In this document: positions 7,802 to 35,208 of the stretch, in pieces
How positions within the stretch are numbered: the first letter of the stretch is position 1
Layout: every line of letters begins with the position of its first letter
Source of the DNA: Myxococcota bacterium
GTDB taxonomy: Bacteria > Myxococcota_A > SURF-8
Assembly: GCA_965140415.1 (NCBI GenBank)
Contig: OZ223209.1
Coordinates: forward strand, 1,376,001-1,440,000
Length of the DNA: 64,000 nt
Direction of reading: 5' to 3'
The notes under the pieces: generated by a model
Database searches by the model: none
Seen by the model: the letters and a program-made list of their open reading frames with translations, nothing else
What the model was told of the DNA's origin: nothing
Program-made: the position numbers and the translations under genes

Positions 7802-7868
7802 ACAACCACCTATCGGCCCGCTCGGGCGCATTTCCATTTTACTCATAACCACCAAAAGACATGGATGC

Positions 7869-14763: not shown

Positions 14764-15450
14764 TTATTCGTTGGAAGAGTCGGGAGAATTCGCCTTCTCA
14801 ATTTCCTCGTTCAACTTCTCGACTAATTTATAAACAGTGGTAGATGGATTGGGGAATGGTTCAGACTCACCTAGTTTTTCATAATCGTGATACAGTTTTT
14901 TCGCACGTCGTATAGCGACCTTTTGTCTGCCTAGCAATTTATCATACATACCAGGATCATTCTTTTTGTATTTGTATCCCAGTTTTGTATCCAGTTTATC
15001 GGATAGCTGATCGCGAGTATAGCCTGTAACAGTGTGATCGAAGTGCAGTAAATACCACAACTCGAAAGCTTCATTGGAGAAGGCTATTCGGTAGACGTCC
15101 TTTCCTTTGAACGGCTTATTAAGTTCTTGTATTTTACAGAAAGCTTGATTGATTTGTTTGGGTTTGAAACCATCTCGGTCAAACACGCACCAGACATGAT
15201 CGAAAGGCCCCTCTCTCATTACTATCTTTTCAGCGTATTTGACCAGTGAAATCGTATTTCGGCCTGCTCCTTTGATGGTGATCTGGACGGTGTTTTTATG
15301 CAATTTCTGGCGAAATGAATCAAAATACTGGGGTTCGGTTTTTTCTCCTTCACAAACGATCAGAATCGTTTTAAACGACTTACGTCTCCTTTCAGGTCGC
15401 TTTGGCCGCTGCCTTCGGATACGTCCCGATTTTTTAGCACCTTTACTCAT
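14764..15450 (-). CDS. RloB-family protein (TOPRIM-like; AbiLii-like)
   Basis: IVCEGEKTEPQYF, WCVFDRD, SNEAFELWYLLHF, NPSTTVYKLVE; start overlaps the upstream ATPase stop. Confidence 0.9.
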   Translation of the reverse strand: MSKGAKKSGRIRRQRPKRPERRRKSFKTILIVCEGEKTEPQYFDSFRQKLHKNTVQITIKGAGRNTISLVKYAEKIVMREGPFDHVWCVFDRDGFKPKQINQAFCKIQELNKPFKGKDVYRIAFSNEAFELWYLLHFDHTVTGYTRDQLSDKLDTKLGYKYKKNDPGMYDKLLGRQKVAIRRAKKLYHDYEKLGESEPFPNPSTTVYKLVEKLNEEIEKANSPDSSNE

Positions 15451-19239: not shown

Positions 19240-19980
19240 TTACCCTTTGAACATGATGGCGGTTCCGGCAAAGAGCAGCACGGAATAAACGAAGATGCGG
19301 AAGCCCCTTTCGGGGAGCTTGTTGTGTATCCCTTCGCCGATAAAAATGCCCAGCGCCAATGCGGGCGAGAGTTGCAGGCTGATCATTAAGGTCGATGAGT
19401 CGATGCGCCCTGCGGTCAAATGGCCGATAAGCAGGATGAGGTTGAGGATCAACCAGACGGCGCTCAAAGTGCTGCGAAACACCCGTTTGTCCGGTAGCGA
19501 ATAGCTGGCCCAGTACGCGATTAGCGGACCGCCCGAAACCCAGAGTCCTTGAACGACGCCGCCGACCAGCAGCCACAATCCGGATGCTTTCGACTTCGGG
19601 TCGGAAAGATTCTGTGGAGGATTATGGAAGTGTCTATATAGCTCGAAAAGCGCCAGGAAGAGCACGAAGGCGCCGAACAGCGGCTTCATCCATCCCGCTT
19701 CCGCCTGGCCGAACAACCACAAGCCCAGCGGCATTCCGGCGATGGTCAGTGGAAGAATGCGCTTGATCAGCGCCTGCACATCGATGCCGCTGCGATGGCG
19801 TATTGCCAGATAAAGACAGATCACGATGTTCAACGGAACGATCACCGGGACCATCAGCGAAATGGGAAAAAGCAGCACGGAGAAGGTCAGGGAAATAATC
19901 GCGCTGCCGAAACCGACGGCTGCCCCTACCATGTAGCCGATCAAGATAATCGGAAAGAGCGCGGCATATTCAAACGACAT
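19240..19980 (-). CDS. TauE/SafE sulfite-exporter family membrane protein
   Basis: GAAVGFG in the N-terminal half and GGVVQG..SGGP in the C-terminal half; multiple TM helices. Confidence 0.85.
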   Translation of the reverse strand: MSFEYAALFPIILIGYMVGAAVGFGSAIISLTFSVLLFPISLMVPVIVPLNIVICLYLAIRHRSGIDVQALIKRILPLTIAGMPLGLWLFGQAEAGWMKPLFGAFVLFLALFELYRHFHNPPQNLSDPKSKASGLWLLVGGVVQGLWVSGGPLIAYWASYSLPDKRVFRSTLSAVWLILNLILLIGHLTAGRIDSSTLMISLQLSPALALGIFIGEGIHNKLPERGFRIFVYSVLLFAGTAIMFKG

Positions 19981-19996
19981 CGAAAATCCCCTGCAT

Positions 19997-20839
19997 TCAA
20001 GCGGATATACGCGCAGCAACGCCACGCGAGAGGAACATCACTCCGGTTACGACCAGTAACATCAGTAACACCTGCGAAAGCGTGGGAAAGATACCATAAA
20101 TCGCGATTTCCAGAAACAATGGCGTTAGAATCGTGGCGGAATTCACGGCGGATACGACTTCGATGGCCCGGCTTTTTAGAAAACCGAATTGCGTAATGAC
20201 CGTGGCGGAGGCGGCGAACAGCAGTGCGACATAAGGGTAGGGGTTATCCAGTTGGCCGGAAAAAGAGCCGCCCGCTTCCACGAGGGCGATGTCCGCAAGA
20301 AAAATGGCCAAGCCGATACAGGTACCCGCCAGACAACCGAAGGCCAGGCCATGAATGGCGCGGTAAAAGCGTGCGAGAAAGCAGGCGACTGCGCCAGCCG
20401 CAAGCAGGATGCCGATGGAGATGATCAGCCGCCCTAACGAAAAGTGACGCTCCGTGATCTCGTGGTTTCCGCCCAAATAAGCCAGGGCGGAGGTGCCTAC
20501 TACCACGAGAGCGATTCCGATGAAATCGCTTTTACCGAAACGCTCCCCGATGACGTTGACCGCATAGATTCCCAATCCGATCAGACCTACGCCGGTCATA
20601 GCCGAAACGGAAGACGGCGACTGCGAGAGCTTCAGTCCCAGCGAAAAGGGAATGGTTGCGCTGGCGGTCATTGCAAAACCCAGAATCCAGAAAATCAAGT
20701 CGCGCCGATGAGCGGAGGTCAAGATCAAGCGTCCGCTGGTGAACACATGCACGAATTGCTTCTGTACGCCTTTGCCGATGTTCATCAATAAGGCCGCGAC
20801 GATTCCGAGCATAAGCCCGTAAACAAACAGGTCGTTCAT
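19997..20839 (-). CDS. Multi-pass membrane protein, DMT-superfamily-like
   Basis: About 9 hydrophobic segments; GKGVQK and IGER patterns resembling DMT/NIPA-type transporters. Confidence 0.6.
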   Translation of the reverse strand: MNDLFVYGLMLGIVAALLMNIGKGVQKQFVHVFTSGRLILTSAHRRDLIFWILGFAMTASATIPFSLGLKLSQSPSSVSAMTGVGLIGLGIYAVNVIGERFGKSDFIGIALVVVGTSALAYLGGNHEITERHFSLGRLIISIGILLAAGAVACFLARFYRAIHGLAFGCLAGTCIGLAIFLADIALVEAGGSFSGQLDNPYPYVALLFAASATVITQFGFLKSRAIEVVSAVNSATILTPLFLEIAIYGIFPTLSQVLLMLLVVTGVMFLSRGVAARISA

Positions 20840-20847: not shown

Positions 20848-22050
20848 CTATAGCAGCTTGGCCGCTTCGAGCATGAGTGTGTCGTTGGTGCCGTCCATAA
20901 TCGCCAGCAGTGGCGCGTCGCGGGAGTATTTTTCCAGTTTGTAATCCTTCGCGATACCGTAACCGCCAAGAACCTGGACCATTTCGGAGGTATGGCGAAT
21001 CGCGAGATCCGTGGTATGGATTTTACCCGTCACGCTGGTCAGCAGATCGCCGGGGAAGGCGTTCTGGCAATGCCAGCTTCCCTTCCACAACAGCGCTCGG
21101 CAGGATTCGATGGCCGTGCGACATTCGAACAGGCGCTTGGTGACGAGTTGATGTTCGATAATCGGTTTGCCCCACTGAACGCGTTCCTTGGCGTAAGCCA
21201 GCGCTTCTTCATACGCAGCGCGCATCAGGCCGACCGCCAGATAGCCGGTGCCCAGGTTTCCAACGGTCATGATGGAATGATGCAGGAAGGGATAGGCATC
21301 TCCCGGCGGGAAGATCAGGTGATCTTCGGGGACTTCGACATCATCGAAGTAAACCGGGGCCTGATTGAGTGCCCGCAGGCCGATGCGGTCTACGGCTTTG
21401 CCGCGCGTGACACCGTCTGCATCGCCCGGAATGATGAACGCGCCTGAACCCCGTATGCCCAGTTCGGGAGAGATGCAGGCGAAGATGATGTAGTTTTTGG
21501 CGATTCCGCCGTTACTGACGAAGTTCGATTTCACCCCGTTGATGACGTAGCGGTCGCCTTTTTTGACGGCGGTGGTGCGATGGCGCACTTTCGGATCGAA
21601 ATAGTTTTTTCCGTCCGAGCCGATATCGGGTTCGCTGCTGCCCCAGGCGGTGATGGCGTTGCCGGTTTCATCTTCGCAGTAGGGGCGCACGTACCGGTCG
21701 ATCAGGTCTTGATTTGTGGAGGCCAGAAATGCCGTAAGAGCCGGCACGACGGAGGCGGCCATCAGCGATGCGGTGAAGCCCGTTCCGTAGCGGGCAAGCT
21801 CTTCCCAAATCAGCGCGTTCGTTGTGGGTTCAAGCCCCAACCCGCCGAATTCTTCTCGGATGCCCATTTTGTGAAAACCGAGTTGAAAAGCCTGGGCCAT
21901 GGTCTTGCGGAAAAGCTCCGATTCGAACGCGGCTTGCGGGTCGGACATTTTATCCAGTTCGATTTCGGCGGGTTCCAGCATCTCTTTGCCGAAATCCCGA
22001 GCGGTCTTGACGAACTGAGTTTGAGTTTCGGATAGCGTAAAATCGATCAT
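20848..22050 (-). CDS. Acyl-CoA dehydrogenase family protein
   Basis: EEFGGLG, SEPDIGSD, INGVKSNFVSNG, YAKERVQWGKPI, QVLGGYG, RDA..LAIMDGT. Confidence 0.93.
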   Translation of the reverse strand: MIDFTLSETQTQFVKTARDFGKEMLEPAEIELDKMSDPQAAFESELFRKTMAQAFQLGFHKMGIREEFGGLGLEPTTNALIWEELARYGTGFTASLMAASVVPALTAFLASTNQDLIDRYVRPYCEDETGNAITAWGSSEPDIGSDGKNYFDPKVRHRTTAVKKGDRYVINGVKSNFVSNGGIAKNYIIFACISPELGIRGSGAFIIPGDADGVTRGKAVDRIGLRALNQAPVYFDDVEVPEDHLIFPPGDAYPFLHHSIMTVGNLGTGYLAVGLMRAAYEEALAYAKERVQWGKPIIEHQLVTKRLFECRTAIESCRALLWKGSWHCQNAFPGDLLTSVTGKIHTTDLAIRHTSEMVQVLGGYGIAKDYKLEKYSRDAPLLAIMDGTNDTLMLEAAKLL

Positions 22051-22059: not shown

Positions 22060-22824
22060 CTATTCGCCGCTGCTGAAGTCGGTCATTTTAAAGTAATGGG
22101 GTAAAAAGCTTTCCTGGTCCACTTCCTGAAGGATCTTGCCCGGCAGCATCGTGTTGTGACTGACGATATGGAAAGCCATGATGACGCTTAGCCCGTCCAG
22201 TTCATGCCAGGGATCGGTTTCGGAAGGTTGGAACGTGACTTGTGCGCTACCGATTTCGAGTTCGACCAGGTCGATCTCGGTTTTCTGCTCGGCCAGGAAC
22301 ACGGGACCGTCGAAGCCGGGCTTCAGATCGATGCGGGGCATCCCCTTGAAAAGATAGGTCGGACCGCTCACCGGAAGTTCCGGTAACGTGCCGGACAACT
22401 CGCCTTTGATCTCCAAGAAGCGCACACCGTTGCGTTCGACCCAGCCGTGGATGCGGTTGCCGTCCTTTTCGTAATGGATATTCGCCATCTTTTTCGGGAA
22501 GCCGAAAATGTCCCGCCCGTTGTAATTGCGCGCTTCATTGTTTATCGGCATGGAAAGACAGTATGCACCCGGTTGTCCCTTGTACTTGCAGCGGATAAAC
22601 AAAGCCGCTTCGTGATAGCCCGGTCCGAGATTGGTTTTAGGATATTCGGCGATGAAGATCAATCCACCGGGCATGTCCGCCTGTTCCAGCGGCGCGGGAA
22701 GCAGGGGCGCGGTCTGTTCGGCTGGCGAGGAAAACATCACGCCCATCATCTTGGCATTCTCGAAGCGCCGCACGCCCAGTGCGTAGTAACGTTCCAACTC
22801 TTCGGTAGTTTTCACAAAGCCCAT
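22060..22824 (-). CDS. Acetoacetate-decarboxylase (ADC)-family protein
   Basis: LLPAPLE, YHEAA, GRDIFGFPKK (Schiff-base Lys motif). Confidence 0.88.
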   Translation of the reverse strand: MGFVKTTEELERYYALGVRRFENAKMMGVMFSSPAEQTAPLLPAPLEQADMPGGLIFIAEYPKTNLGPGYHEAALFIRCKYKGQPGAYCLSMPINNEARNYNGRDIFGFPKKMANIHYEKDGNRIHGWVERNGVRFLEIKGELSGTLPELPVSGPTYLFKGMPRIDLKPGFDGPVFLAEQKTEIDLVELEIGSAQVTFQPSETDPWHELDGLSVIMAFHIVSHNTMLPGKILQEVDQESFLPHYFKMTDFSSGE

Positions 22825-22858: not shown

Positions 22859-24697
22859 TCAGGAAAACTTTTTATACATCCCGATTTTCGAGGACTGCGC
22901 CTTCAAGATGGCCCACTCTACGAAACCGGGTGACAAGCGGTAAATCATCCAGCCCAATACGCCCACCTTCGTCATGATCAAGCGGCGTTTCCGTTTTCGG
23001 ATCATGTCGACGATCAGTGAAGCGGCATACGCCTGGGTATGGTGTGCGGGCCGATCCGGAGGCACCGGTGTGCCGTCTGCGGCGAGGATGCGCTTTTCCG
23101 GGTCGTGTTCGGTAAAGCCGAGATACACGACGCCCGAATGTACGCCGTCTTCCGCCAGTTCCAGGCGCAGCGATTCGCTGAATCCAGTTAGAGCGCTTTT
23201 ACTGGCGCAATACGTGGACGCGCCGGGTAAGCCGAACAGGCCTGCGATACTGGAAACGAAAACAACGTTACCCTTGTTCTTTCGCAGGTCGTCGATGGCG
23301 GCAGAGGTGGGATAGATACAGCCCATCAGGTTGGTTTGAATCGTCTGTGCGCAGACCTCCGGGGCAAGTTCGTGAAATCTGCCACGCATGGAAACCCCGG
23401 CATTGTTCACCAGAATGTCCACCGGGCCGAACGCTTCACGCGCTTTGGCGACCATGTTTTGAGCGTCATCCCAGTTGCCGACGTCCCCGGTGACCGCTTC
23501 GACCTGGCCTCCGAGTGTCCTTAATTTGGCGAGAGAATCCATCAGCCGGGTTTCCCCCCGAGCGGAAATGACGACCTTGGCCCCGCGCTTCACGAATTCG
23601 CGCGCCAACGCGTATCCGACCCCGCGACTCGCGCCCGTTACCAACACGACGCGATCCTTGAATTCATCGCGGAGGTTACTGAAAATATGGCCGTATCGCA
23701 TCAGGCTGCGCAAGGTTTCCGCAATGCCCGTTTCGATGGGTGTCTGGGGCAGGTCGAGTTCACGTATGGCTTTTTGTGAACTGTAGTAGGTGCCGCAGAT
23801 GGCAAGCTTTGCCAGAGTGCGGTTCAAACCGATACTTTTACCGGTCAGTGTTGTGATGAAACTGCCCAGCAGGCCGATCAGGAGAATCAAAAAACGCGGC
23901 AGCACGTACTTGGGCGGCGTGACACCGATTTGGCGTGCGACCTGGGTGAAGAAATCCTTATAGGTCAGGTTCGGTCCGCCGAGAATGTAGCATTCTCCGT
24001 TACGACCCTTATGCAATGCCGAGATCATGGCATCGGCGACATCCGGTGCGTAGGCGAAGTTGCGGCCACCCGCCGTGACTGCTTTCATCTGACGCACGAT
24101 GAACTGGCGGATCAATTCGCCTGAACTGGGACGCCAGTCGAGATCGCCAAGCATGAATGTCGGTGAAACGACGACGGCTTCCAGTTTCTTTTCATTGACG
24201 TACTGCAATACGAGATTCATGGCGCTGTGCTTGGATTCCATGTACGCAACGCCGTGGTAGCCTTTGGCCATCGGAGTGGTTTCGTCGCCCGGCTTCTCGA
24301 TAGAGCCGTAGCCGAAGGAACTGGCCGACCCGGTGAAAATCAGGCGGGTAACGTTCTTGGCCACGCAGGCATCCAGCACTTTCCGAGTCCCCTCAAAATT
24401 GACCTTCCACGTCAATTCGGAACTGGCCCACATATCCGTGATCGCCGCCAGGTGAAACACATAGGTGCAGCCGTCCATGCACTCCGCCAGCCCGTCGCCT
24501 TCGTCGAGCAGATCGCCTTCGACTCGCTCGATGTTCAGCCCGTCCAAGGTGGGACTGGTGCTCCCCTTTTGACTGAGAACCCTGACCTGGTACTGTTGTT
24601 CCAACAGTTTGCGGACCAGGTGGCTTCCCAGCAAGCCATCGGCACCGATGACGAGTACCCGTTCTTTCAAGTTGTCCGTTTCTGCAACCATATTCAT
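22859..24697 (-). CDS. Fusion of extended SDR (HpnA/dihydroflavonol-reductase-like) and classical SDR
   Basis: N-half GADGLLG, FHLAA, YMESK; C-half TGASRGVG, NNAG, YCASK; ATGA overlap with the activase stop (alternative start 24691). Confidence 0.9.
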   Translation of the reverse strand: MNMVAETDNLKERVLVIGADGLLGSHLVRKLLEQQYQVRVLSQKGSTSPTLDGLNIERVEGDLLDEGDGLAECMDGCTYVFHLAAITDMWASSELTWKVNFEGTRKVLDACVAKNVTRLIFTGSASSFGYGSIEKPGDETTPMAKGYHGVAYMESKHSAMNLVLQYVNEKKLEAVVVSPTFMLGDLDWRPSSGELIRQFIVRQMKAVTAGGRNFAYAPDVADAMISALHKGRNGECYILGGPNLTYKDFFTQVARQIGVTPPKYVLPRFLILLIGLLGSFITTLTGKSIGLNRTLAKLAICGTYYSSQKAIRELDLPQTPIETGIAETLRSLMRYGHIFSNLRDEFKDRVVLVTGASRGVGYALAREFVKRGAKVVISARGETRLMDSLAKLRTLGGQVEAVTGDVGNWDDAQNMVAKAREAFGPVDILVNNAGVSMRGRFHELAPEVCAQTIQTNLMGCIYPTSAAIDDLRKNKGNVVFVSSIAGLFGLPGASTYCASKSALTGFSESLRLELAEDGVHSGVVYLGFTEHDPEKRILAADGTPVPPDRPAHHTQAYAASLIVDMIRKRKRRLIMTKVGVLGWMIYRLSPGFVEWAILKAQSSKIGMYKKFS

Positions 24698-25602
24698 CCT
24701 CCCCATATCGGCTGGCAGCCTGCCAATTGAAATGCATCCACGATGCGTTGCCTGTCTTTTTCCTGTACGTTCTCGAAAGAACGGTAGTCGTTTATACGTC
24801 CGGTTCGTTCGTATTTTCCTTTGGCCCAGCCGTGGTAAGGCAATAGGTCCACGCGACCCGTATAACCGGCCTTTGCTAGAAAGGCGGACATCGTTTCGAT
24901 GCTGTGGTTATCAGTGTTGAATTCCGGAATGAGCGGAATGCGCATGATCAATTTGTCGGCTGCAGTCGAGATCAACTGCTGAAGATTTGCCATGATGGTG
25001 TCGTTACTGACACCAGTGTAACGGCGATGTGTTTCGGGATCGTGATGTTTGAAATCGAAGAGGAATAGGTCTACAGCGGAGATAAGTTCCGGGAGGAGGT
25101 TCGTGTTGAAATGTCCGCAGGTTTCGATGGCGGTATGTATGCGTTCGCTTTTCAAGCGCGCCAGGATCTCGAGCAGAAACTCGGGTTGGCGCGTCGGTTC
25201 GCCTCCACTGAAGGTCACGCCACCACCGGATGACTCATAGAATGGGCGATCGGCCAGCAAGAGCGGCATGAGATCGTCTGCATCCATGTCATATCCGATG
25301 TATTCCTGCGCCGATTCGGTGCAGGTTTCCACACAGGTTCCGCAGACTGTACAGCAGTTCAAATCCCTGCTGATGCGGCCATCGGTCAAGGATAAGGCTT
25401 GCTCGGGGCAAGTCTTCACGCAGTTGCCGCAGCCGATGCAGGTTCGGCTGCGCCAGCCGATTTCTTTCTTGTCGGATTGCGACTCGGGGTTGTGGCACCA
25501 TGCGCACTGCAAAGGACAGCCCTTTAAAAAGACGCAGGTACGGATTCCGGGGCCGTCGTAGATGGCGTTGTACTGGATGTCGAAAAGAACGCCAGTGGTC
25601 AT
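24694..25602 (-). CDS. Glycyl-radical enzyme activating enzyme (radical SAM, ferredoxin insert)
   Basis: DGPGIRT, CPLQCAWCHNPES (CX3CX2C), CIGCGNCVKTCP and CTVCGTCVETC, GGVTFSGGEP. Confidence 0.97.
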   Translation of the reverse strand: MTTGVLFDIQYNAIYDGPGIRTCVFLKGCPLQCAWCHNPESQSDKKEIGWRSRTCIGCGNCVKTCPEQALSLTDGRISRDLNCCTVCGTCVETCTESAQEYIGYDMDADDLMPLLLADRPFYESSGGGVTFSGGEPTRQPEFLLEILARLKSERIHTAIETCGHFNTNLLPELISAVDLFLFDFKHHDPETHRRYTGVSNDTIMANLQQLISTAADKLIMRIPLIPEFNTDNHSIETMSAFLAKAGYTGRVDLLPYHGWAKGKYERTGRINDYRSFENVQEKDRQRIVDAFQLAGCQPIWGG

Positions 25603-28215
25603 TTAGAAAGCTCCATGTTCGGTACGCGCGATAATTTCATCTTGAATTTCGCTTCCCAGATCCACGAAGTAGGTGCTGTATCCGCCGACCTTGACGATCA
25701 GATCCTGGTGCTTTTCGGGATTCGTTTTCGCTTCGCGCAATTGCTCCGTGGAAACGCAGGTAGGCTGTAGCTGTGCGCCTCCCATGTTGAAGTAGGTACG
25801 GATCAGTTGTATCCATTTGCGTTGCGTTTCTTCGGTTTCGCCGATTGCACTGGGGTGGAATTTCATGTTGACGGCGCTGCCCATGACATCGCCAAACGGC
25901 AGGGCAGCGACCGAGCGAAGTGCGGCTGTTGCGCCGAAACGCTCGACGTTATACGGATTGCAACTGGCCGCATAAGGAAGCGCCGCCTTGCGACCGTCCG
26001 GTCCGGCGATGGAAAGCCGCCCGTCGATGGTATGGGTAATCATGCTGATGACGTACACCACGAAAGGCCCGTTCCGGGTGGTGCGATACTTGTAGGTGAT
26101 ATCGAATAGGCGCTTGCATACGGTGGCCGCCAGTTCATCCGATTCCGGGTGCCCGTTTCCCCATTTGCCGGGAAGAGCTTTGATCTTTTTTGCAAGCTCT
26201 TCATAACCGACGAAGGAGTGATCCATGGCTTCTAAAAGTTCGCGCATGCTGCAAGCACTCTCTTCGTAAACCAGCTTTTTGATGGCATAGAGCGAATCGA
26301 CCATGTTGGCGATGGAGTTGATCATCGAAATACCAGCCAGATCGTAGGTCGCACCACCAGTAGTGACATCTTGCTTGGATTGCAGGCAGCCATCCATGAA
26401 AGCCGAGATGTAAGGTGCAGGTAGATAGCGAGAGAATAACGAATCGCGCAGGTTCGATCCATTGACGAGTTTTTCGATGAAAAATTCCGCCTGCTTGTAA
26501 AGTGCTTCCAGGAAGGATTCGAAATCCGGGAAGTCGTCGGGATCGCCCGTGCTGGGGCCTTCCTGCTTGATGATCCCAGCCAAAATCGCCGAGTCCCCGT
26601 TGCGCATGGTGATGTCGAGCAGCCGTGCCAGTTGCAGCGCATTGGCGCTCATGCTACCGGTTTTTCCGGGACAGGTCGCTTCGACACAACCCATGACAGC
26701 GTAGTTTCTCGCATCCTCTTCCAGAAAGCCTCTCTGAAGCATGGATTCGATATGCGTCGTGTCGTTGAACAGGGAATAACTGGACGTACCCTGCTTCAGG
26801 TAGTGGGCCACGGCTTGCAGAAGCTCGCTGGGCGTGTTGTCGTGAATGCGGATGGACACGTTGGTGATGGCCTTGGAATGGTGCGCCGCTTCGATGAAAA
26901 GATAGGTCAGCTCATTGGTTGCGTCCTGGCCGCTTTCGTCCACACCACCTAAGGTGATCGGGGATGATCCCAGAAAGCGGTGATAGAAATTACTTAAAAT
27001 GTTGGATTCGGGACGAATGTTCTGGCTCATGATTTTAAGTAGCAGCTCTTCCAATAACTCCAGGGCGTCCTGTTTCGATATGTCGCCGCTTTCGATGTCG
27101 CGCCGGTAATAGTCGATCAGGCTCTGATCCAAACGACCGAAGCAATGCAGATTGACCGGATGAGCCAGTTCCAGAGCGGTCTTGACCGTCCACAGCGACT
27201 GAACCGCCTGCCGGAAACTGCCGGCGGGTTCGAAGGGAACGTGGCGGCAGATGTTAAGCATGGTTTCAAGTTCGCGCTTGCGTTCGCTGTCGTTTTCCCG
27301 TTCCATTTCGTTCGCAAGCTTTTCTGCCAAGCGCTTGGAAAACACCTCGACGCCTTGCAGCGCAACAAGTTGCGACTCCAGTGCGGCTTTCTGTTCGGCT
27401 GTCAGATTCTTTTGATCCAGGGCCGCACGAAGGTTTTCAATCAATCCCTTTAATCCAAGGCGAAGGACGCTTTCGTAATCCGCAATGACGTGCCCCTGAT
27501 AGGTGGCGATGGTCGTACAGGTGGAAACCATTTGCACCTGCCGCGACGTGTTGCCCGGCAGCGCCACGGCGAAGTCGTGCATGTCCTTGGAGTACAAGCC
27601 GGATTTCAGCGTCTCCCGTTCCAGGTGATCGACCACGGTTTGGCCGTCCCAATACGGGAGAAGCTGGCTCAGTAACTCTTTTCGATCGTCTTTATTGATG
27701 TGATAGGGATTGATGTTTCGCTCGCCCATGGTTTTGAAATCCATGTTCAGCGGTTGCGATCCCGCCATTTTGGCGAGCTTCTGATTGCGCATGAAGTCAC
27801 TAAGGGTTCCCTTTTTCAGCATGTAGGAAAGCCCTTTGGCCATCGAACCGATTCTGAAACGGATCATGGAGGATTTAGTCAATTCAGCCTGAAAGACCTT
27901 GTTGAACACGCCGCGCTCGATGTCGATGGGAACGCCAAGGAAGAATTCGGTCCAGCTACCGGCTATGCGTTCGTCCCGGTCGAGGTAGATCGTCATGTTT
28001 TCGAAAACGTGCTTCATTGCATGGGCCACGCGCAGAGGTAGCGGCATTCCCGAGTTTTCCGTTTGCTGCCAGCTTTGCGTGTAGTAGCGGGCGCGTTCGA
28101 CGGAAATCATGGCGGGTCCGAACTGGTAGCGATGCTTCATCCTGGCGATGCGGCTATCCGGTTCGTTTAGGTAGCGATCCGTTTCTGCTGATAGCTGATG
28201 TGTGGTTTCCAACAC
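25603..28215 (-). CDS. Glycyl-radical enzyme (PFL2/eliminase-like, divergent)
   Basis: ERA..T, GRLDQ, TLGG, DATNELT, Cys loop GCVE, KWGN, PDGR, Gly loop IVKVGGYSTYF, QDEIIART. Confidence 0.95.
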   Translation of the reverse strand: MLETTHQLSAETDRYLNEPDSRIARMKHRYQFGPAMISVERARYYTQSWQQTENSGMPLPLRVAHAMKHVFENMTIYLDRDERIAGSWTEFFLGVPIDIERGVFNKVFQAELTKSSMIRFRIGSMAKGLSYMLKKGTLSDFMRNQKLAKMAGSQPLNMDFKTMGERNINPYHINKDDRKELLSQLLPYWDGQTVVDHLERETLKSGLYSKDMHDFAVALPGNTSRQVQMVSTCTTIATYQGHVIADYESVLRLGLKGLIENLRAALDQKNLTAEQKAALESQLVALQGVEVFSKRLAEKLANEMERENDSERKRELETMLNICRHVPFEPAGSFRQAVQSLWTVKTALELAHPVNLHCFGRLDQSLIDYYRRDIESGDISKQDALELLEELLLKIMSQNIRPESNILSNFYHRFLGSSPITLGGVDESGQDATNELTYLFIEAAHHSKAITNVSIRIHDNTPSELLQAVAHYLKQGTSSYSLFNDTTHIESMLQRGFLEEDARNYAVMGCVEATCPGKTGSMSANALQLARLLDITMRNGDSAILAGIIKQEGPSTGDPDDFPDFESFLEALYKQAEFFIEKLVNGSNLRDSLFSRYLPAPYISAFMDGCLQSKQDVTTGGATYDLAGISMINSIANMVDSLYAIKKLVYEESACSMRELLEAMDHSFVGYEELAKKIKALPGKWGNGHPESDELAATVCKRLFDITYKYRTTRNGPFVVYVISMITHTIDGRLSIAGPDGRKAALPYAASCNPYNVERFGATAALRSVAALPFGDVMGSAVNMKFHPSAIGETEETQRKWIQLIRTYFNMGGAQLQPTCVSTEQLREAKTNPEKHQDLIVKVGGYSTYFVDLGSEIQDEIIARTEHGAF

Positions 28216-28225: not shown

Positions 28226-28840
28226 TCACTTTTCCGGCGGTCCGTTCTCGACGGAATCGATCAGTACGTTTGCAAGCCAGCTTAAATGCAGCTTGCGCTC
28301 TTTGACCAACGCCTTTGACATCGGGTCTTTATTGAGCAGGCGGCTGAGCAACTCGTCGTAGGTGAAATAGCTGATGATCGCGCCGTAATAGCTGACGAGT
28401 AGATGCTCGGCAGCGGTTTCTCCCTTTTTCGTCTTCGGGTAGACGTCTTTTAGCGCCCGGATTCCGAGATCGAAGAGCGGGGTCATATGCGTGGCGATAC
28501 GATCCAGGTGAGCGCCCCCGGCGGCTTCCCGCTGGACGATGCGCCCGAAATTCCGATTCTCGATTAGGAAATCGACGTACGCATCGATCAGGGTTTGCAG
28601 GCGCTCGCGTAAGGTGACGTCCTGGGAAAGGGTGCTTTGCAACTGTTGACCTAGTTTCACGTAGTATCGGTCCAGTAGTTCGGTTAAAAGCCCCTGCTTG
28701 CTTTGAAAGTGGTAATGGATCAATGCCTTGTTCACGTTCGCACGTTCCGCAATTTCGCGGGTGGTTGTGGCATCGAAACCGATTTCACCGAACAGTTCAT
28801 CCGCTGCTTCAAGAATTTTCTCTTTTGCATTCGTACTCAT
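28226..28840 (-). CDS. TetR/AcrR-family transcriptional regulator
   Basis: KILEAADELF..GFDATTTREIAERANVNKALIHYHFQSK helix-turn-helix. Confidence 0.95.
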   Translation of the reverse strand: MSTNAKEKILEAADELFGEIGFDATTTREIAERANVNKALIHYHFQSKQGLLTELLDRYYVKLGQQLQSTLSQDVTLRERLQTLIDAYVDFLIENRNFGRIVQREAAGGAHLDRIATHMTPLFDLGIRALKDVYPKTKKGETAAEHLLVSYYGAIISYFTYDELLSRLLNKDPMSKALVKERKLHLSWLANVLIDSVENGPPEK

Positions 28841-28871: not shown

Positions 28872-28927
28872 AATTAACCGGTCGCCCAATTAATTTCAAT
28901 TATCAGCATACCGCAGGGAATTGTCAA
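28872..28927 (-). promoter_or_regulatory. Sigma70-like promoter with a candidate TetR operator
   Basis: Minus strand TTGACA (28927-28922), 17 bp, GATAAT (28904-28899); imperfect palindrome aattaaccggtcgcccaatt at 28872-28891. Confidence 0.55.
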
Positions 28928-29146: not shown

Positions 29147-30571
29147 CTATGGTTCCAATTTTCCCGGATTCAGGATGCGATTCGGATCGAGCAGGTTTTT
29201 TACGCCCTCGATGACGTCGAGCATGGCTGGGTTGATCTTTTCGGCCATGCGCTTCCAGGCCCAGCTTGGCGTTTTGTACATCAGGAAACCCTTTTCGCTG
29301 AGCATGGTAAGCAATTCGCTGTTCAGCGCTTTGATGGCCTCGACTTCCTTTTCGTTCTTCTTGTCGAAAATGGCGATGAAGCGCAGAACGCCGAAGTGAC
29401 CGCCGCGCATGGGGCGGGAAACGATGATCGGTGGGAAACCATGGCGTGTCATGATTTCGATGCCCGCCTCTGCGCCTTCCTGAAATTTGGACAGGGGACC
29501 GTAGGTGCCGATCCAGGTCAAGCCGCCGCCGCCGTGGTCGGTGAGAAAATCCAGGTCCGTCGGGAATTCCGCGAACTTGTTCATCTTCGGGTTCACCTTG
29601 ACCAGCGTTTCGATATCCAGTGGGTCTTCGTAGCGTTCGCCATCTGCCCGTAACTCGTGGATGACGGAAAGCAGAATCTTCTCTTTGACCTTCATTTCTT
29701 CTTCGATCTCCGCCGTCAGATCGATGTAGAGGAAAAACTGCGGTTCGCCTTCGGAGGGGACCGGATGCGGTCGCTTGACGCCCATCATCATCTTGCCCGA
29801 AGGCCAGCTCAGTCCGCCGATGTCATCGCAGATTTCTTTTTTGACAAGTCGCCGCATGGCGCGATAGGTCGCCTGGGGATCGTAGGTCAAAATAAAGAGC
29901 CGCTTATTCAACGGATGGGCGGGCCAGAGCTGGAAGGCCATTTTGACGGCAACGCCCGTGGTGCCCTGCCAGCCGATGAACAAGCCGGTCAGATCTGGAA
30001 AAGGCACGAGTCCGAATGGTGTTGTGTTTTGATGCGCCCAGGCACCGGTTTTTAAGATGTCGCCATTGGGCATAACGACTTCCAGCCCGGAAATCCAGTC
30101 CGACTGATCACCGTATTTCAGCGAGCGGTTGGTCAAGCCGCCCAGCAAAGCATTGGCGAAAATCGAGGTGTTCGGCGGCGCCAGAGAATATCCCAATGTC
30201 AACGGCAGGTCGTGTTCGATGAGATAATCTTTGATGATCTGCTGGGTGACACCGGGCTCGATGATGGCGTACATGTCGTCTACGTTGACTTCCAGCACCC
30301 GATTCATGCGTGTCATGTCGAGCACCACACCGCCGCGCTCGGGGATGGTCAGCCCTCCGACATTGGTGCCGTAGGCACGCGGGGTAAGTGGCATTTTCAA
30401 CTCGTTGGCATGGGCGACGATTTTCCGTACCTGTTCCGCATTATCCACCATGGCCACAAATTGAGGATCGTGGGCGGGGGCCTCGGTAAAGTCCTCGCGA
30501 TATTTCGCGATGTCGTCCGTTTGTGTGAGCACATTTTCAGCGCCGAGCAGATCGATTAAAAATTGTTTCAC
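29147..30571 (-). CDS. FAD-linked oxidoreductase (VAO/PCMH family; GlcD-like)
   Basis: GTNVGG, LDMTRMNRVLEV, EPGVT, GLEVVMPNG, GWQGTTG, C-terminal LDPNRILNPGK. Confidence 0.9.
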   Translation of the reverse strand: MKQFLIDLLGAENVLTQTDDIAKYREDFTEAPAHDPQFVAMVDNAEQVRKIVAHANELKMPLTPRAYGTNVGGLTIPERGGVVLDMTRMNRVLEVNVDDMYAIIEPGVTQQIIKDYLIEHDLPLTLGYSLAPPNTSIFANALLGGLTNRSLKYGDQSDWISGLEVVMPNGDILKTGAWAHQNTTPFGLVPFPDLTGLFIGWQGTTGVAVKMAFQLWPAHPLNKRLFILTYDPQATYRAMRRLVKKEICDDIGGLSWPSGKMMMGVKRPHPVPSEGEPQFFLYIDLTAEIEEEMKVKEKILLSVIHELRADGERYEDPLDIETLVKVNPKMNKFAEFPTDLDFLTDHGGGGLTWIGTYGPLSKFQEGAEAGIEIMTRHGFPPIIVSRPMRGGHFGVLRFIAIFDKKNEKEVEAIKALNSELLTMLSEKGFLMYKTPSWAWKRMAEKINPAMLDVIEGVKNLLDPNRILNPGKLEP

Positions 30572-31035: not shown

Positions 31036-33180
31036 TTATCTGGATAGTGACGTTCTACAGTCGATTCCCTCCACAAAACAAGGGCCGTCGTTGCAGTGCA
31101 TCACGATGCGTCCCTCCTCACCCTTGGCGAAATAGTCGGCAACCTGTTGGTATACTTCCTCGTTGCAGCGCAGGGCATGATGCGCGCCGTTATCGAAAGT
31201 ATCTGCGTTACTGTAACTGGGTTCCTCTTTGCCGGCGTCGTAGAGCACCATACCGGAACTTCCTGCTTGCGTTGGAGTTGAGATGGTCGCGGTCGCGCCG
31301 AAGATTTCATGCGTGCTCGGCAATACGAGAGGAATGTCCGCAGAGCGTAAGAGGGCATATGCGCCGAAATCGGGGGCGTTGGCATCGTGATAGGAAACCT
31401 GCCAAAGCAGATTCTTTTCGGATTTTCCGTCTAGACGGGATATTAAGAAACGCTCTCGCCAGTTGATGGGGTCGATGGGGTCCAGTGCTCGCTGGACCAG
31501 GGCGAGAATGATCTGCTGATGAATGGGATTCGGTTGAAAGATTTCCAGCATCGCCTGAAAATCCGTGAATTCGGCGGAATGCTGCAATAACGAGGAAAAC
31601 ATGGCGCTGGGCACGTGCAATACCGCCGTGCCGATATCTTCCGACAATGCAATACCGACTGCACCGGCTATGGCTCCCAGGCTGATTCCGAAGTAATAGG
31701 TTCGATTCGGATCGATCAGGGAATCGCCTGCACTGTTCAAAAGCAAAGGATCTTGCTTCAAGGTGGTATTGACGAAGTCCGCCATGCGGTCGTAATCGAG
31801 CATGCCTTGAATCAGGCTGTCGTGCAGCATCCACATGCGGTCGAAGGTTTGCAGGATCGTGACGATGTCGCCAAGGTCCGCAGTGGCCATGCCTTTGAAG
31901 TCCGCACCAATGGCAAACACGCCCAGCTCATCAGCCATTTCCAAGGTGCCGTTTTCGTCGCGATCCGTCATGATATAGCGCCAGGCGGCGGACATCAGCC
32001 CGTGACCGACGAGCATGGTGGGGACGGAGGCGCTTGCACTCTGGCGCGTGGAAACGGGTAAGGCGGCGGCAATGGCCACTCGTTCGTTTTGCTGGAAAAC
32101 GGGAGAGCCGTTCTGCCAGTTCATGACGCCGTTTTCCATGAGATAGCTGGGTAACAGGACCGATCCTTCCATGCGACGCCATATGCTTTGATGCAGGTCG
32201 GGATTTTCCGAGCAGTTAAAGGTTTCCCGATCCGCTAGATCGGCAGCGATGCAGGTGGTTTCGTACTCCAAATCACTTGTTGCGGTTTGTTTGCGTACGG
32301 CGTCTAGAGCGGCCAGCAGTGGTGCTTCGGCAAAGTCTCTGCTCATGGTGATGAATTCCCAGGCAAGCACAATCGAGCTTTTCTCTACATCGTTTGTTTG
32401 CAGGAATTCGAAAAGATCCTCATAGTCGCTGAGCTGGGATTCGATCTGGTTGCTGTCCGTCGGATTGCCGTCTAACAGAGCCTGCATGGCGTGTGGAATC
32501 GGTAATGCATCACCCGTGTCGGTTTTAACTTTGTCTGTGACCACCACAGCGTATCGATGACTCCAGCGCAAGGCTTGCTGAGGTCGGATGATCATGCTGC
32601 GCTGCTCGTCAATCCAAGTACCGGACGCATCACGCGCGTAGTTGTCCATCTCGGCCCAGACCGGAATCCGTTCGCCCGTTTCCCGGTCGAGAATCTGAAC
32701 CGACGAATTCATCGTAACACTTTCGGCGAGAGTATGCAGCGAAGGCAAGCTACTTTCATCGACGTGCACATCGGGGAAAATCGCCAGAATCGGACTAGCT
32801 ATGGAGAAGCCGTCGGCAGCGTTGAAGCGTTGCAGGAAGTAGTCCCGGCCTTCCTTTGAACTTACTTCAAAGGGCAGCATTTCGGGAGTCAAGGCGACCC
32901 TGTAGCCGGTTGGGGACGTCTGCTCGGTTTGTAGTTGCGCCATCGACGGATAGGGGTACATGCAGACTTCGGAAATCAAGTGGGCGCAACCGGCTTCGGT
33001 GGAAAGAGTGACGATCTCTTTTTCCGTATCCGATTCGCTAGCGTATTCCAACTCGTTATCGCCATCGGTAGCTGTATCCTCCGGGTCGCTTTGACAGGCG
33101 CAAACAACCAGCAGAAAACAAGCTATGATTGACAGCGATAGCAAAGCAGATTTCAATTTTAGGCGCGTATTTTCGTTCAC
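31036..33180 (-). CDS. Lipase-like lipoprotein (Ig-like N-terminal region plus alpha/beta hydrolase)
   Basis: GTG start at 33180 overlapping the upstream stop; lipobox VCAC; PYPS, DGFS, IIRP..L, HGL, nucleophile elbow GISLG, DP motif, late His. Confidence 0.75.
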   Translation of the reverse strand: MNENTRLKLKSALLSLSIIACFLLVVCACQSDPEDTATDGDNELEYASESDTEKEIVTLSTEAGCAHLISEVCMYPYPSMAQLQTEQTSPTGYRVALTPEMLPFEVSSKEGRDYFLQRFNAADGFSIASPILAIFPDVHVDESSLPSLHTLAESVTMNSSVQILDRETGERIPVWAEMDNYARDASGTWIDEQRSMIIRPQQALRWSHRYAVVVTDKVKTDTGDALPIPHAMQALLDGNPTDSNQIESQLSDYEDLFEFLQTNDVEKSSIVLAWEFITMSRDFAEAPLLAALDAVRKQTATSDLEYETTCIAADLADRETFNCSENPDLHQSIWRRMEGSVLLPSYLMENGVMNWQNGSPVFQQNERVAIAAALPVSTRQSASASVPTMLVGHGLMSAAWRYIMTDRDENGTLEMADELGVFAIGADFKGMATADLGDIVTILQTFDRMWMLHDSLIQGMLDYDRMADFVNTTLKQDPLLLNSAGDSLIDPNRTYYFGISLGAIAGAVGIALSEDIGTAVLHVPSAMFSSLLQHSAEFTDFQAMLEIFQPNPIHQQIILALVQRALDPIDPINWRERFLISRLDGKSEKNLLWQVSYHDANAPDFGAYALLRSADIPLVLPSTHEIFGATATISTPTQAGSSGMVLYDAGKEEPSYSNADTFDNGAHHALRCNEEVYQQVADYFAKGEEGRIVMHCNDGPCFVEGIDCRTSLSR

Positions 33181-34355
33181 GGTTTTACATCCATTCGGTT
33201 TTGCAGATACCACAAGGCATACAGAAACTGGAAATTGCAGCCGGAGCAGTAAAATTCGGGATCTTCGGGGAGCGCCACTCTTCCGTCCATCCAATGGTGC
33301 AGGATGCGGCCTTCTTCCGGCTCATACAGATAATCGCGCACGAACAGTATGATGGATTCGATTTCGGAGAGATACGATGTGTCTTCTGTGATTTCGATCA
33401 GCATCATCAGCGCCAGAATCGTATAGTTCATGCTGGACAGGGTGGTGTAATTGTCGGTGGTGGCCCCCATGTGTTTGGCGCTGTAGGGACTGTGGTAGCG
33501 ATTTCCCTCCGGGTCTTTCAAGTCTTGAATTGCCTGGTAAAGCAACAGGCTGCGGGTTTTGTAAGCTTCCTTTTCCGTCAGCTTATAGGCGATGCAATGG
33601 GAAAGCATCATCATGATATTCGGATAGAGATAGAGAGCTTCCGTGTCCGAGTTGAAGCGATAGTAGTTTCCCATGAAGGCTTTTTCATTGATGGTAACCA
33701 TGATGCCTTCTGCAAAGTCGATCCGCTCCTGCTTGCGTGGCGTGTCGAGCATTTCCGCATAGCGCAGATTGATTAAAACCAGCACACCCGCAATGGTTGT
33801 AGGACCGTAAGTTGACAGCGCATACGAGCCGATATCGAGTTCGATATACGTACCGAAAGAGGTCAGCGTATCGTTGGCGAGATCGAGGAATTCATCGACG
33901 GTGGCCAGCGGTGCGGTGTCTCCGGTGACGTACATGTATTCGATGAGCCCCAGTTCGGCCATCATCAGTTCTTCCAGGTTGTCGATGAAGCCAACGAAGT
34001 CGTCTTTGCTGTCGTTAATGATCGTGATGTTACGATCCTTGACTTCGGTCGCCCGAGCGATGTAATCCTCCCTGGATTCGCTGGTACCGGCATTGATGTA
34101 GTAGGCCAGACCGTAATAGGCGGCATCTCCGAAATCCAGAGTCCAGTCTCCGGATTCGATCGGATAGGACCAGGCGCTATCCCGCAGTTCCATATAGAAG
34201 GCTTCGATTTCCGAGGGTTGGTAATCCTCGGATTCATTTTCGACGTCTCCATCGGGCAGGCTTATCGTATCGTCAGAACTCGAACAGGAAAAGACCAACA
34301 TGATTGTGCATGGAATCAGCCAGCAAATGAAAACTTTTGAAAGCGACAAAAACAT
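33177..34355 (-). CDS. Lipoprotein with probable (alpha/alpha)6 toroid fold (GH76/AGE-like), function unknown
   Basis: RBS plus ATG at 34355; lipobox VFSC; DGD motif after Cys; helical repeats with aromatic/acidic motifs. Fold call is tentative. Confidence 0.5.
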   Translation of the reverse strand: MFLSLSKVFICWLIPCTIMLVFSCSSSDDTISLPDGDVENESEDYQPSEIEAFYMELRDSAWSYPIESGDWTLDFGDAAYYGLAYYINAGTSESREDYIARATEVKDRNITIINDSKDDFVGFIDNLEELMMAELGLIEYMYVTGDTAPLATVDEFLDLANDTLTSFGTYIELDIGSYALSTYGPTTIAGVLVLINLRYAEMLDTPRKQERIDFAEGIMVTINEKAFMGNYYRFNSDTEALYLYPNIMMMLSHCIAYKLTEKEAYKTRSLLLYQAIQDLKDPEGNRYHSPYSAKHMGATTDNYTTLSSMNYTILALMMLIEITEDTSYLSEIESIILFVRDYLYEPEEGRILHHWMDGRVALPEDPEFYCSGCNFQFLYALWYLQNRMDVKP

Positions 34356-34386
34356 GCTCTTTCTCCATTTTCCTAGGCGATTGCAA

Positions 34387-35208
34387 TCACTCATCCTTTT
34401 CTTTGAGATCACCGATCATTTTCATGCCACGTCTGGCTCCCCACAGTCGAACCGACAGGGGAATCCATTTTAAGAACCAGATTCCAAGCGCGTTCATAAA
34501 ACCCGTGATAATCGTACGGCGCCTGGTTGCCATGGCGTTCAGGGCGATTTCAGCAACCCGCTGCGAAGGCATCATGGCGAGTGATACGGCGGATGAAAGC
34601 CGATATCCGGCAGTGGACCAGAACTCGGATTCCGTAGCACCTGGATGCACCACGGTGACGTTCACCCCTGTACCCTGTAGTTCGCAGCCGAGGGCCTGTC
34701 CGAAACTGGTGACAAACGCCTTGGACGCGCCGTAGGCGGCGAAGCCGGGCATCGGTGAATAGGCGACACCGGAGGAGATCAGTAGCACGTCGCCAGAGCT
34801 GTTTCGAATCATACTGGGAAGGAGAAGGTGAGTCAGCACGGTGAGCGTCATCACGTTCAGTTGAAGCATGGCCTGGATGCGCGGCCAGTCGCAGTCTATG
34901 AAATCGCCGCCGATTCCCACTCCCGCATTGTTGACCAGCAGATCCACGCTTTTCTCAAGCGTTTCGATTCGTTCGACAAGGCGCTCGGCTGCGTCGTAGT
35001 CGGCCAGATCCGCAGCAAGCACATGAATTTGAATGCCATGCTTTTCCGCAAGATCGTTTGCGAGCTTCGTCAGCAGTTCTTCGCGCCTGGCGACCAGAAT
35101 CAGGTTACAGCCCGCAGCGGCGAGCAGGCAGGTCATATCCAGTCCAATACCCGAACTGGCCCCTGTAACCAGAGCGGTTTTACCTTTCCACTTCGCAAGA
35201 CGGTCCAT
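34387..35208 (-). CDS. Short-chain dehydrogenase/reductase
   Basis: TGASSGIG, VARR, NNAG, YGASK, HPG.T. Confidence 0.93.
   Translation of the reverse strand: MDRLAKWKGKTALVTGASSGIGLDMTCLLAAAGCNLILVARREELLTKLANDLAEKHGIQIHVLAADLADYDAAERLVERIETLEKSVDLLVNNAGVGIGGDFIDCDWPRIQAMLQLNVMTLTVLTHLLLPSMIRNSSGDVLLISSGVAYSPMPGFAAYGASKAFVTSFGQALGCELQGTGVNVTVVHPGATESEFWSTAGYRLSSAVSLAMMPSQRVAEIALNAMATRRRTIITGFMNALGIWFLKWIPLSVRLWGARRGMKMIGDLKEKDE

Follow-up and report, generated by a model that had tools for sequence, protein, structure and literature searches.

Glycyl radical enzymes (GREs) perform chemically difficult anaerobic reactions, and each newly assigned clade of the superfamily (CutC, HypD, IslA, HpsG) exposed an unsuspected route of carbon, nitrogen or sulfur cycling. 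Members are recognized by the fingerprint RVxG[FWY] in a C-terminal Gly loop plus a conserved downstream pattern. Here, we analyzed a GRE (P0001) encoded in a 64,000-nucleotide stretch of a Myxococcota genome (assembly GCA_965140415.1, contig OZ223209.1, positions 1,376,001 to 1,440,000; hereafter the window). Its closest described counterparts in structure are the B12-independent glycerol dehydratase of Clostridium butyricum (1r8w) and the propanediol dehydratases 5i2a and 9rco, which have the same ten-stranded barrel (Foldseek ranks 1-10, template modeling (TM) scores up to 0.83/0.90) and share with it the GCVE Cys loop, a histidine of the His164 type, the register of the Gly loop and an adjacent activase of the PFLE_PFLC type. 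Unlike these dehydratases, our GRE and its close relatives have Lys for Arg and Gly for Ala in the Gly loop, an added 48-residue basic hairpin, an invariant Arg413 and a different operon, with no microcompartment or propanediol-pathway genes nearby. The comparisons below support the view that these proteins form a distinct, uncharacterized member of the PFL2/eliminase branch, in line with the first-pass annotation of the window, which had called the protein a new GRE subclass.

The protein is identified as a GRE by its Gly_radical match, which scored 73 bits against a Pfam cut-off of 22.2, but its scores for the functionally defined families were low. Against NCBIfam, it reached 458.8 bits for TIGR01774 (the PFL2-3 subfamily; cut-off 678.2), and 428, 397 and 377 bits for the HpsG, HypD and CutC equivalogs, whose cut-offs are 1000, 1100 and 1050; across the CutC, HypD, HpsG/HpfG, PflD-type, indoleacetate decarboxylase and hydroxyphenylacetate decarboxylase equivalogs, scores were 219-428 bits against cut-offs of 1000-1150. 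HpsG, a dihydroxypropanesulfonate (DHPS) dehydratase (6lon), was the top sequence match among both the NCBIfam equivalogs and the solved structures (337 bits for the latter), with propanediol dehydratase (5i2a), CutC (9f3w) and glycerol dehydratase (1r8w) also at about 330 bits. Benzylsuccinate synthase (4pkc), methylalkylsuccinate synthase (9o8u) and hydroxyphenylacetate decarboxylase followed at 177, 175 and 154 bits.

Searching 1.84 billion cluster representatives in full with HMMER, we found two relatives of full length, P0122 (55% identity, 1076 bits) and P0124 (41% identity, 762 bits), before scores dropped to 436 bits and 35% identity for the next protein after the clade. A word-indexed search returned at least 120 proteins of 835-919 residues with 59-100% identity, and the clade comprises, at the least, more than 120 clusters at 90% identity. 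In a FastTree phylogeny of 100 rows with an arbitrary root, the 41 clade rows were monophyletic (Shimodaira-Hasegawa (SH)-like support 100, stem length 0.41), and the uncharacterized P0130 was their sister (SH-like support 99). P0130 and another uncharacterized protein, P0128, are 35-37% identical to the GRE and share KVGGY, His242 and Glu512 with the clade, but have neither the insertion nor the FYHR loop described below, and neither matched an NCBIfam family at E 1e-250. Of the 60 nearest outgroup representatives, a single one, P0163, exceeded an equivalog cut-off (that of HpsG) in a comparison with NCBIfam at E <= 1e-250. A full-text literature search, largely confined to freely available journals, found no description of the clade, its motif or its operon, and the clade could already appear as an unnamed node in a published sequence-similarity network. 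A study of Guaymas genomes mentions unassigned GREs (PMC6258724).

Clade members occur in Myxococcota, Hydrogenedentota, Gemmatimonadota, Nitrospirales, Syntrophomonadaceae, UBP15 and Promethearchaeota, and this patchy spread over distant phyla suggests horizontal transfer. Within the host phylum, 4 of the 201 genomes searched have a member (68-100% identity), and 8 more have only a paralogue type with 35-36% identity. Source databases name clade members 'pyruvate formate lyase family protein', 'formate C-acetyltransferase' or 'trans-4-hydroxy-L-proline dehydratase'. The genome itself contains two more PFL2-type GREs outside the window, at G000:C1:1768618-1770669 (+) and 2492778-2494307 (-), in open frames of 848 and 839 amino acids; on the parts scanned, both were below all NCBIfam equivalog cut-offs.

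To define the signature of the clade, we tallied residues across 122 aligned clade sequences and, for comparison, in 59 outgroup rows (Table 1). The first-pass annotation had singled out the lysine of the Gly loop as non-canonical, and this variant is real: it is invariant in the clade and present in all 120 close homologues among the matches listed (KVGGY in 118, KIGGY in 2), as against 10 of 139 outgroup representatives, the rest of which have Arg (114), Leu (1) or no recognizable loop (14). Arg to Lys is the sole departure of the loop from that of the superfamily, and it is also found in 10 of the 125 outgroup loops; the pattern that should follow the loop can be seen in the translation. 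As P0128 and P0130, the two nearest outgroups, both read KVGGY, the lysine is a minority state that predates the clade and is shared beyond it. The annotation had also placed IVKVGGYS at 25675-25692; these nucleotides hold KVGGYS (residues 842-847), and the longer string spans 25675-25698. Similarly, GCVE (residues 509-512) and GSMSAN (residues 520-525) are both present, but seven residues separate them, so that the second does not directly follow the first. The features of the signature are thus conserved and define the clade, and they reflect neither chance nor sequencing noise.

The open reading frame (ORF) of the GRE exists on the minus strand as annotated, encodes 870 amino acids and contains all of the motifs quoted from it. 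It starts with GTG at 28215, the next codon being TTG at 28212, and a GAGGA lies 1-4 nt 5' of the start, immediately past the stop codon of the preceding gene. P0002, the public call of the same gene (835 amino acids), begins 35 codons further in. The residues dropped by this call are kept across homologues and align with HpsG, and the longer start is the better one because homologue alignments begin at residues 1-22. The ORF encodes a complete GRE that is probably functional. AlphaFold2, given a 100-sequence alignment (A1), produced a model with a mean pLDDT (predicted local distance difference test) of 94.3 and a predicted TM score of 0.94, and this model has the ten-stranded alpha/beta barrel of the superfamily. 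Foldseek returned 98 matches to it at E <= 0.001, and all 39 of the 39 listed are GREs, with target TM scores of 0.78-0.93. The closest folds, with TM scores of 0.80-0.85 (query) and 0.84-0.93 (target), are those of dehydratases and eliminases, led by glycerol dehydratase, propanediol dehydratases, HypD and CutC; the top match, 1r8w, has TM scores of 0.82 (query) and 0.90 (target). Glycerol and propanediol dehydratases are only 27-28% identical to the GRE. CutC (5fau, 9f3w) and HypD (6vxc) have the same fold and share the Cys/Glu dyad with the clade.

We derived active-site equivalences from a pairwise HMMER alignment of the GRE to 1r8w. Cys510 is present in all 122 clade sequences and all 59 outgroup rows, and Glu512 in 118 of the clade sequences (Asp in 3, Asn in 1). 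The two features expected of a 1,2-eliminase, a Glu two residues past the catalytic Cys and a His equivalent to His164, are therefore both found in the GRE. The positions expected to bind substrate in a glycerol or 1,2-propanediol dehydratase are all changed: His281, Ser282, Tyr339, Asp447 and Tyr640 of 1r8w, its glycerol-binding positions, correspond to Asn355, Leu356, Ser417, Ala524 and Ile723. Thus, the catalytic core looks like that of a dehydratase-type 1,2-eliminase whose specificity pocket has been rebuilt, with small or apolar residues apparently replacing large polar ones, and with the clade-invariant Arg413 joined by His412, His357 and Cys358. This agrees with the first-pass annotation, which had described the segments HPVNLHCFGR (residues 352-361), NFYHRFLGSS (409-418) and YVISMITH (721-728) as pocket-lining and unlike those of glycerol dehydratase, CutC or HypD; all three were found, and they bring a new arginine, Arg413, in addition to changes among the five glycerol-binding positions. 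Since the clade-specific residues predicted by alignment to line the pocket are mainly polar or cationic, they would suit an anionic or polar substrate bigger than glycerol rather than a lipid tail.

The pocket also differs from those of the other eliminases. At position 417, where the clade has Ser, CutC has Phe and IseG has Trp, both far larger residues. CutC also has Tyr where the clade has His242, and a carnitine- or choline-type trimethylamine-lyase was rejected as a candidate given these two differences and the failure to find a BCCT transporter. HpsG and the isethionate sulfite-lyases IseG/IslA (5ymr, 7kq3) share with the clade the histidine of the beta-strand loop (position 728). In isethionate and DHPS GREs, an Arg pair and a Gln hold the sulfonate. 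The clade GRE does not keep this set: the IseG and HpsG arginines correspond to Ile236 or Ala237 and to Tyr721, and the Gln to Gln240 or a gap, in alignments that conflict locally, and HpsG and IseG have Gln or a gap where the clade has the dehydratase-type Gly-His. Neither enzyme has the 48-residue insertion. A TauE-family permease, present in the operon in this lineage, had prompted a sulfonate reading of the GRE, which we downgraded because no more than 3 of 33 loci have the permease and because the positions that bind sulfonate are changed.

A further difference between the clade and its relatives is the insertion at residues 113-160. It is 48 residues long and free of gaps in 33 of 33 clade rows and is nearly without gaps across the 122 clade sequences; in 120 of 121 outgroup representatives, the same columns contain 0-9 residues. 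The first-pass annotation had quoted part of it (residues 115-150, nt 27766-27873) as an amphipathic stretch. That an N-terminal insertion exists holds; its amphipathicity does not exceed that of other helices, as the two inserted helices have hydrophobic moments (0.24 and 0.28, with 11-residue maxima of 0.55 and 0.42) in the middle of the range spanned by the other 28 of the 30 modeled helices. What sets the inserted helices apart is charge: they contain 9 Lys or Arg and 2 Asp or Glu, and their net charges of +6 and +2 are outside the range of the other helices. Positions 114, 121, 127, 134, 135, 143, 146 and 149 are each basic in 106-121 of the 122 clade sequences, alternating with conserved hydrophobic positions, and residue 140 is the one conserved acidic position. 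In the AlphaFold2 model the insertion forms an ordered helical hairpin (block pLDDT values of 96, 92, 93 and 94, and 84 for the subsequent loop) that is strongly basic, and the simplest reading is that an anionic partner, or an anionic part of the substrate, docks on it. An outgroup protein with a RISGY Gly loop, P0245, has an unrelated insert of about 40 residues at the same N-terminal site, which apparently tolerates additions. The half-barrel pivot of GREs has been described in general terms, in passages that do not mention the insertion site (PMC12756279).

The GRE gene lies in a compact minus-strand operon that begins with a TetR-family regulator and ends with the TauE-family permease (Table 1). 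One pair of genes abuts, overlaps are 13 and 29 nt, and gaps are 8-34 nt. The abutting pair is the GRE and its activase, which begins at the base right after the GRE stop; it has a visible CxxxCxxC in its translation and is of the PFLE_PFLC type, providing the dedicated radical SAM activase expected of a GRE. The promoter-like site before the TetR gene is the best of 5 in the region, where shuffled sequences average 6.3 sites, and is thus a consensus match only. To measure which genes travel with the GRE, we collected 30 loci from genome contigs and 32 from metagenome contigs, of which 54 are core loci (GRE at least 55% identical), and counted tblastn matches with at least 40% identity at the 33 core loci with at least 5 kb of 3' flank. 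The short-chain dehydrogenase/reductase (SDR) protein was linked at 29 of these loci, the acetoacetate-decarboxylase-family (ADC-like) protein at 27, the acyl-CoA-dehydrogenase-fold (ACAD-like) flavoprotein at 27, the activase at 17, TetR at 14, the DMT-like permease (probably a drug/metabolite transporter) at 9 and the TauE permease at 3. A TetR homologue at this identity was found at 16 of the 37 core loci with at least 1 kb of 5' flank, and, with a looser threshold, at 22 of the 30 genome loci; with this threshold, the TauE permease is at 6 of the 30.

The partners accompany the GRE at bacterial loci of Myxococcota, Hydrogenedentota, Gemmatimonadota, Syntrophomonadaceae and unclassified bacteria, whereas Asgard loci are mostly without them. 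At some loci the two SDR halves are split or one half alone is present. An aldehyde:ferredoxin oxidoreductase gene lies within 10 kb of the GRE at four loci (L002, L008, L027, L028), which fits an aldehyde product, and MFS or GPH transporters are found at L013, L017, L027 and L028. Among ORFs of at least 90 amino acids, no CoA ligase, carrier protein, microcompartment shell protein, small GRE subunit or mutase recurs across the loci. With its TetR repressor and, in this lineage, its two permeases, the operon appears to serve the inducible breakdown of a small solute. The protein that we call DMT-like has eight hydrophobic segments and a weak EamA match, and its Atlas neighbors are EamA/NIPA clusters (0.95), which we take as a lead only.

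Alignment of the ADC-like protein to the ADC structures 3bgt and 3c8w shows that it has the GFPKK lysine pair of true acetoacetate decarboxylases. Across 14 orthologues, Lys111 never varies, and Lys112, Arg19 and Glu72 are at least 90% conserved or invariant; these residues presumably have catalytic roles. The ACAD-like protein most resembles butyryl- and short-chain acyl-CoA dehydrogenases, with butyryl-CoA dehydrogenase (1buc) as its best solved relative. It has an Asp, Asp386, that is invariant in 18 of 18 orthologues (from loci L001-L025) at what we take to be the position of the catalytic Glu of short- and medium-chain acyl-CoA dehydrogenases. Nitroalkane oxidase has an Asp at the equivalent position of the ACAD fold.

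From family membership, the clade signature, conservation, fold and gene linkage, we infer a chemistry, a kind of substrate and a role for the hairpin. The reading that we consider probable, with considerable doubt, is that the locus is an inducible catabolic module in which an eliminase-type GRE turns a new hydroxylated, probably anionic solute into a carbonyl compound, which is passed on to the SDR, the Schiff-base decarboxylase and the ACAD-fold flavoprotein. In this module, the activase would install a radical on Gly845, from which it would move to Cys510. The Cys510 thiyl radical would abstract a hydrogen from the hydroxyl-bearing carbon of the substrate, and Glu512 and His242 would assist a 1,2-elimination, either a dehydration or the loss of another leaving group, to give a carbonyl product. 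The SDR domains, the ADC-type decarboxylase and the ACAD-like flavoprotein, with Asp386 as a putative base, would then process this carbonyl via a beta-hydroxy- or beta-keto-acid stage. Because the pocket is rebuilt relative to those of glycerol and propanediol dehydratase, CutC, HpsG and IseG, the substrate is probably new, likely larger than glycerol and probably anionic.

Most of the doubt in this proposal concerns the substrate and the downstream order, and several observations weigh against it. The ACAD-like protein lacks the canonical Glu and so may not be a dehydrogenase at all, and, as no CoA ligase or transferase is conserved beside its gene, the downstream pathway is incomplete as drawn. 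The two permeases are restricted to some lineages, and the linkage counts are not independent because some metagenome loci duplicate those of metagenome-assembled genomes. The catalytic and binding roles that we give to glycerol dehydratase residues are presumed, pairwise HMMER alignments can err locally (those to HpsG and IseG conflict around residues 236-242), and the placement of Arg413, His412, His357 and Cys358 in the pocket is a prediction from alignment. Finally, the sub-clade of P0124 has Asn at both 242 and 512 while retaining the insertion, the FYHR loop and the Lys (in a Gly loop reading KVGGF), so the clade signature is not tied to eliminase chemistry and can serve more than one chemistry. 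This divergent sub-clade consists of P0124 and loci L027, L028, L063, L064 and L065, is about 47% identical to our GRE and is partly from Promethearchaeota (Asgard archaea); the activase is its sole linked partner. At L027, its GRE is flanked by an aldehyde:ferredoxin oxidoreductase and an MFS_2 transporter.

Other readings place the substrate on a carrier or a membrane. The broadest, which we consider doubtful, is that the GRE acts on an anionic carrier- or membrane-presented molecule (a hydroxyacyl-CoA, a hydroxyacyl-ACP (acyl carrier protein) or a lipid head group) that is recruited by the basic hairpin, opening a new anaerobic pathway via the ADC-type decarboxylase and an Asp-type ACAD-like flavoenzyme, a pathway that sediment bacteria and Asgard archaea would have come to share through horizontal transfer. 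It is unlikely that the substrate is specifically a hydroxylated acyl-CoA or acyl-ACP, with the hairpin docking the phosphates of CoA or an acidic carrier protein, which would make this the first GRE to act on a thioester-linked substrate. The conserved basic surface of the insertion and the invariant Arg413 would suit such a role, as would the conservation beside the GRE of an ACAD-fold enzyme, whose family matches include prolyl-carrier-protein dehydrogenases, and of a 3-hydroxyacyl-type SDR without a CoA ligase or transferase. However, the operon has no carrier-protein gene, the ACAD-like protein lacks the catalytic Glu, an ADC-type enzyme would presumably act on free beta-keto acids, and the pockets of known GREs are typically small and buried.

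The first-pass annotation had suggested that the GRE might associate with the membrane through its inserted helix and act on a lipid. We consider quite unlikely a peripherally membrane-bound enzyme that acts, for example, on glycerolipid or ether-lipid head groups in which a vicinal diol is free. The eight conserved basic positions that alternate with hydrophobic ones are a pattern able to bind anionic membranes, and the pocket loses large polar residues at the positions of Tyr339 (Ser), Tyr640 (Ile), Asp447 (Ala) and Ser282 (Leu). A FAD_binding_4 oxidase gene lies just upstream of the operon, and such a gene directly follows the GRE at two Asgard loci; alkyl-dihydroxyacetone phosphate synthase presumably belongs to the same family. 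The window also encodes, elsewhere, an alpha/beta hydrolase and a GDSL lipase-like protein. Neither membrane association nor a lipid substrate gained positive support, however. Hydrophobicity analysis of the GRE protein found no transmembrane-like segment, the insertion is modeled as an ordered hairpin (pLDDT 92-96) with ordinary hydrophobic moments, and the residues predicted to be near the pocket (Arg413, His412, His357, Cys358 and His728) are mainly polar or cationic. The enzymes conserved beside the GRE are soluble and act on small molecules; among them, the ACAD-like protein is closest to the short-chain (butyryl-CoA) enzymes, and the DMT, TSUP and MFS permeases of some lineages suggest a small solute. 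Moreover, at 40% identity or more, the hydrolase, the lipase-like gene, the FAD oxidase and the two other proteins encoded upstream of the operon are linked to the GRE at none of the 54 core loci.

A GRE that does not catalyze elimination, but resembles an X-succinate synthase or a decarboxylase, is about as improbable as a lipid-acting one. Environmental and Asgard GREs often carry annotations of this kind. Asgard GREs have been read as alkyl- or benzylsuccinate synthases on the strength of about 30% identity (PMC8163825). The absence of His242 and Glu512 from the divergent sub-clade would fit such a chemistry, and if the GRE formed an adduct, beta-oxidation of it could involve the ACAD-like partner. 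Against this, the core clade retains both residues, and scores to such enzymes are about half of the roughly 330 bits to eliminases. X-succinate synthases have small beta and gamma subunits and a fumarate-binding pocket, and among ORFs of at least 90 amino acids, genes for small subunits, a CoA ligase or a mutase do not recur in the loci. It is very improbable that the sequence differences are functionally meaningless and that the GRE is simply a common dehydratase of diols or glycerol, or a sulfonate dehydratase of the HpsG type. In favor of this are its best solved relatives (HpsG, propanediol dehydratase and glycerol dehydratase), the conserved Cys, Glu and His and the TauE-family permease in its operon. 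Against it, the GRE scores more than half below every equivalog cut-off, has all five glycerol-binding positions changed, and aligns Ile236 or Ala237 and Tyr721 with the presumed sulfonate arginines of IseG-type enzymes; a comparison of 35 window ORFs (7900-54998) with Pfam found no genes for a microcompartment, for 1,3-propanediol or for sulfite reductase.

The clade is a worthwhile target for enzyme discovery, though an unsurprising one in principle. Its clear sequence signature makes it recognizable in metagenomes, and the conserved context of four enzymes together with TetR gives a direct handle on the inducer and the substrate. The clade also calls for caution with names based on similarity only, as 'pyruvate formate-lyase', 'hydroxyproline dehydratase' and 'alkylsuccinate synthase' are unsafe for such environmental GREs.

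Table 1. Features of the GRE and its operon, with window coordinates; residue counts are from 122 clade sequences and 59 outgroup rows.
Feature	Position	Strand	Evidence or counts
GRE (P0001), PFL2-type, 870 amino acids	25603..28215	-	Pfam PFL-like E 7.8e-143; Gly_radical E 3.3e-20
Clade-specific insertion, residues 113-160: helices 114-135 and 138-150 plus loop	27736..27879	-	Presence/absence in alignment; AlphaFold2
His242, aligned to His164 of 1r8w	27490..27492	-	His in 121/122 clade sequences and 49/59 outgroup rows
FYHR loop, residues 410-413, with invariant Arg413	26977..26988	-	Clade: Tyr411 121, His412 115, Arg413 122; outgroup: Gly at 413 in 44
Cys loop GCVE: Cys510 (predicted thiyl site), Glu512 (predicted general base)	26680..26691	-	Aligned to Cys433 and Glu435 of 1r8w
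Gly loop KVGGY, residues 842-846; Gly845 predicted radical site	25678..25692	-	Gly845 aligned to Gly763 of 1r8w; clade: Lys842 122, Gly844 122, Gly845 122, Tyr846 121; outgroup: 842 Arg 53, Lys 6; 844 Ala 38
His357 and Cys358			Clade: His357 109, Cys358 118; outgroup: 357 Ile, Val or Leu 39; 358 Ser 41
Ala524, Ile723 and His728			Clade: Ala524 119, Ile723 119, His728 122
Sigma-70-like promoter TTGACA, 17-nt spacer, GATAAT, before TetR gene	28899..28927	-	11/12 consensus matches
TetR-family regulator, first operon gene	28226..28840	-	Pfam TetR_N E 2.7e-19; stop 10 nt before GRE start
GRE-activating radical SAM enzyme	24694..25602	-	TIGR02494 330.6 bits vs 174.35; Pfam Radical_SAM, Fer4
Fused extended SDR (epimerase/3-beta-HSD type, ~16-340) and classical SDR (~350-600)	22859..24706	-	Profile matches
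ADC-like protein	22060..22824	-	Pfam ADC E 6.9e-44
ACAD-like flavoprotein	20848..22050	-	Pfam Acyl-CoA_dh N, M and C domains
Polytopic membrane protein, probably DMT-type (EamA/NIPA-like) permease	19997..20839	-	Eight hydrophobic segments; weak EamA match, E 0.029
TSUP/TauE-family permease, last operon gene	19240..20025	-	Pfam TauE E 9.3e-28

Several other genes of the window lie near the operon. The FAD_binding_4/FAD-oxidase_C protein (GlcD-like) just upstream is encoded at 29147-30571 (-), and the FAD_binding_4 genes directly 3' of the GRE at the two Asgard loci (L013:3286-4824 and L015:12136-13674) are 30-33% identical to it. Beyond it, between an SDR gene and the FAD oxidase, 31036-34412 (-) encodes proteins of 752 and 411 amino acids, each with an N-terminal hydrophobic segment; neither matched a Pfam family at E <= 0.001, and they are unlinked to the GRE elsewhere. 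A functional link of the GRE to the FAD oxidase, these two proteins, the SDR or the hydrolase was rejected, with 0 of 54 core loci at the same identity threshold. On the other side of the operon, 14764-16732 (-) encodes an AAA_21 ATPase (429 amino acids) that overlaps a RloB-like protein (237 amino acids), a pair typical of abortive-infection or OLD-type defense modules. The window also has two very large open frames, at 43154-49231 (-) and 3767-7855 (-), of 2025 and 1362 amino acids.

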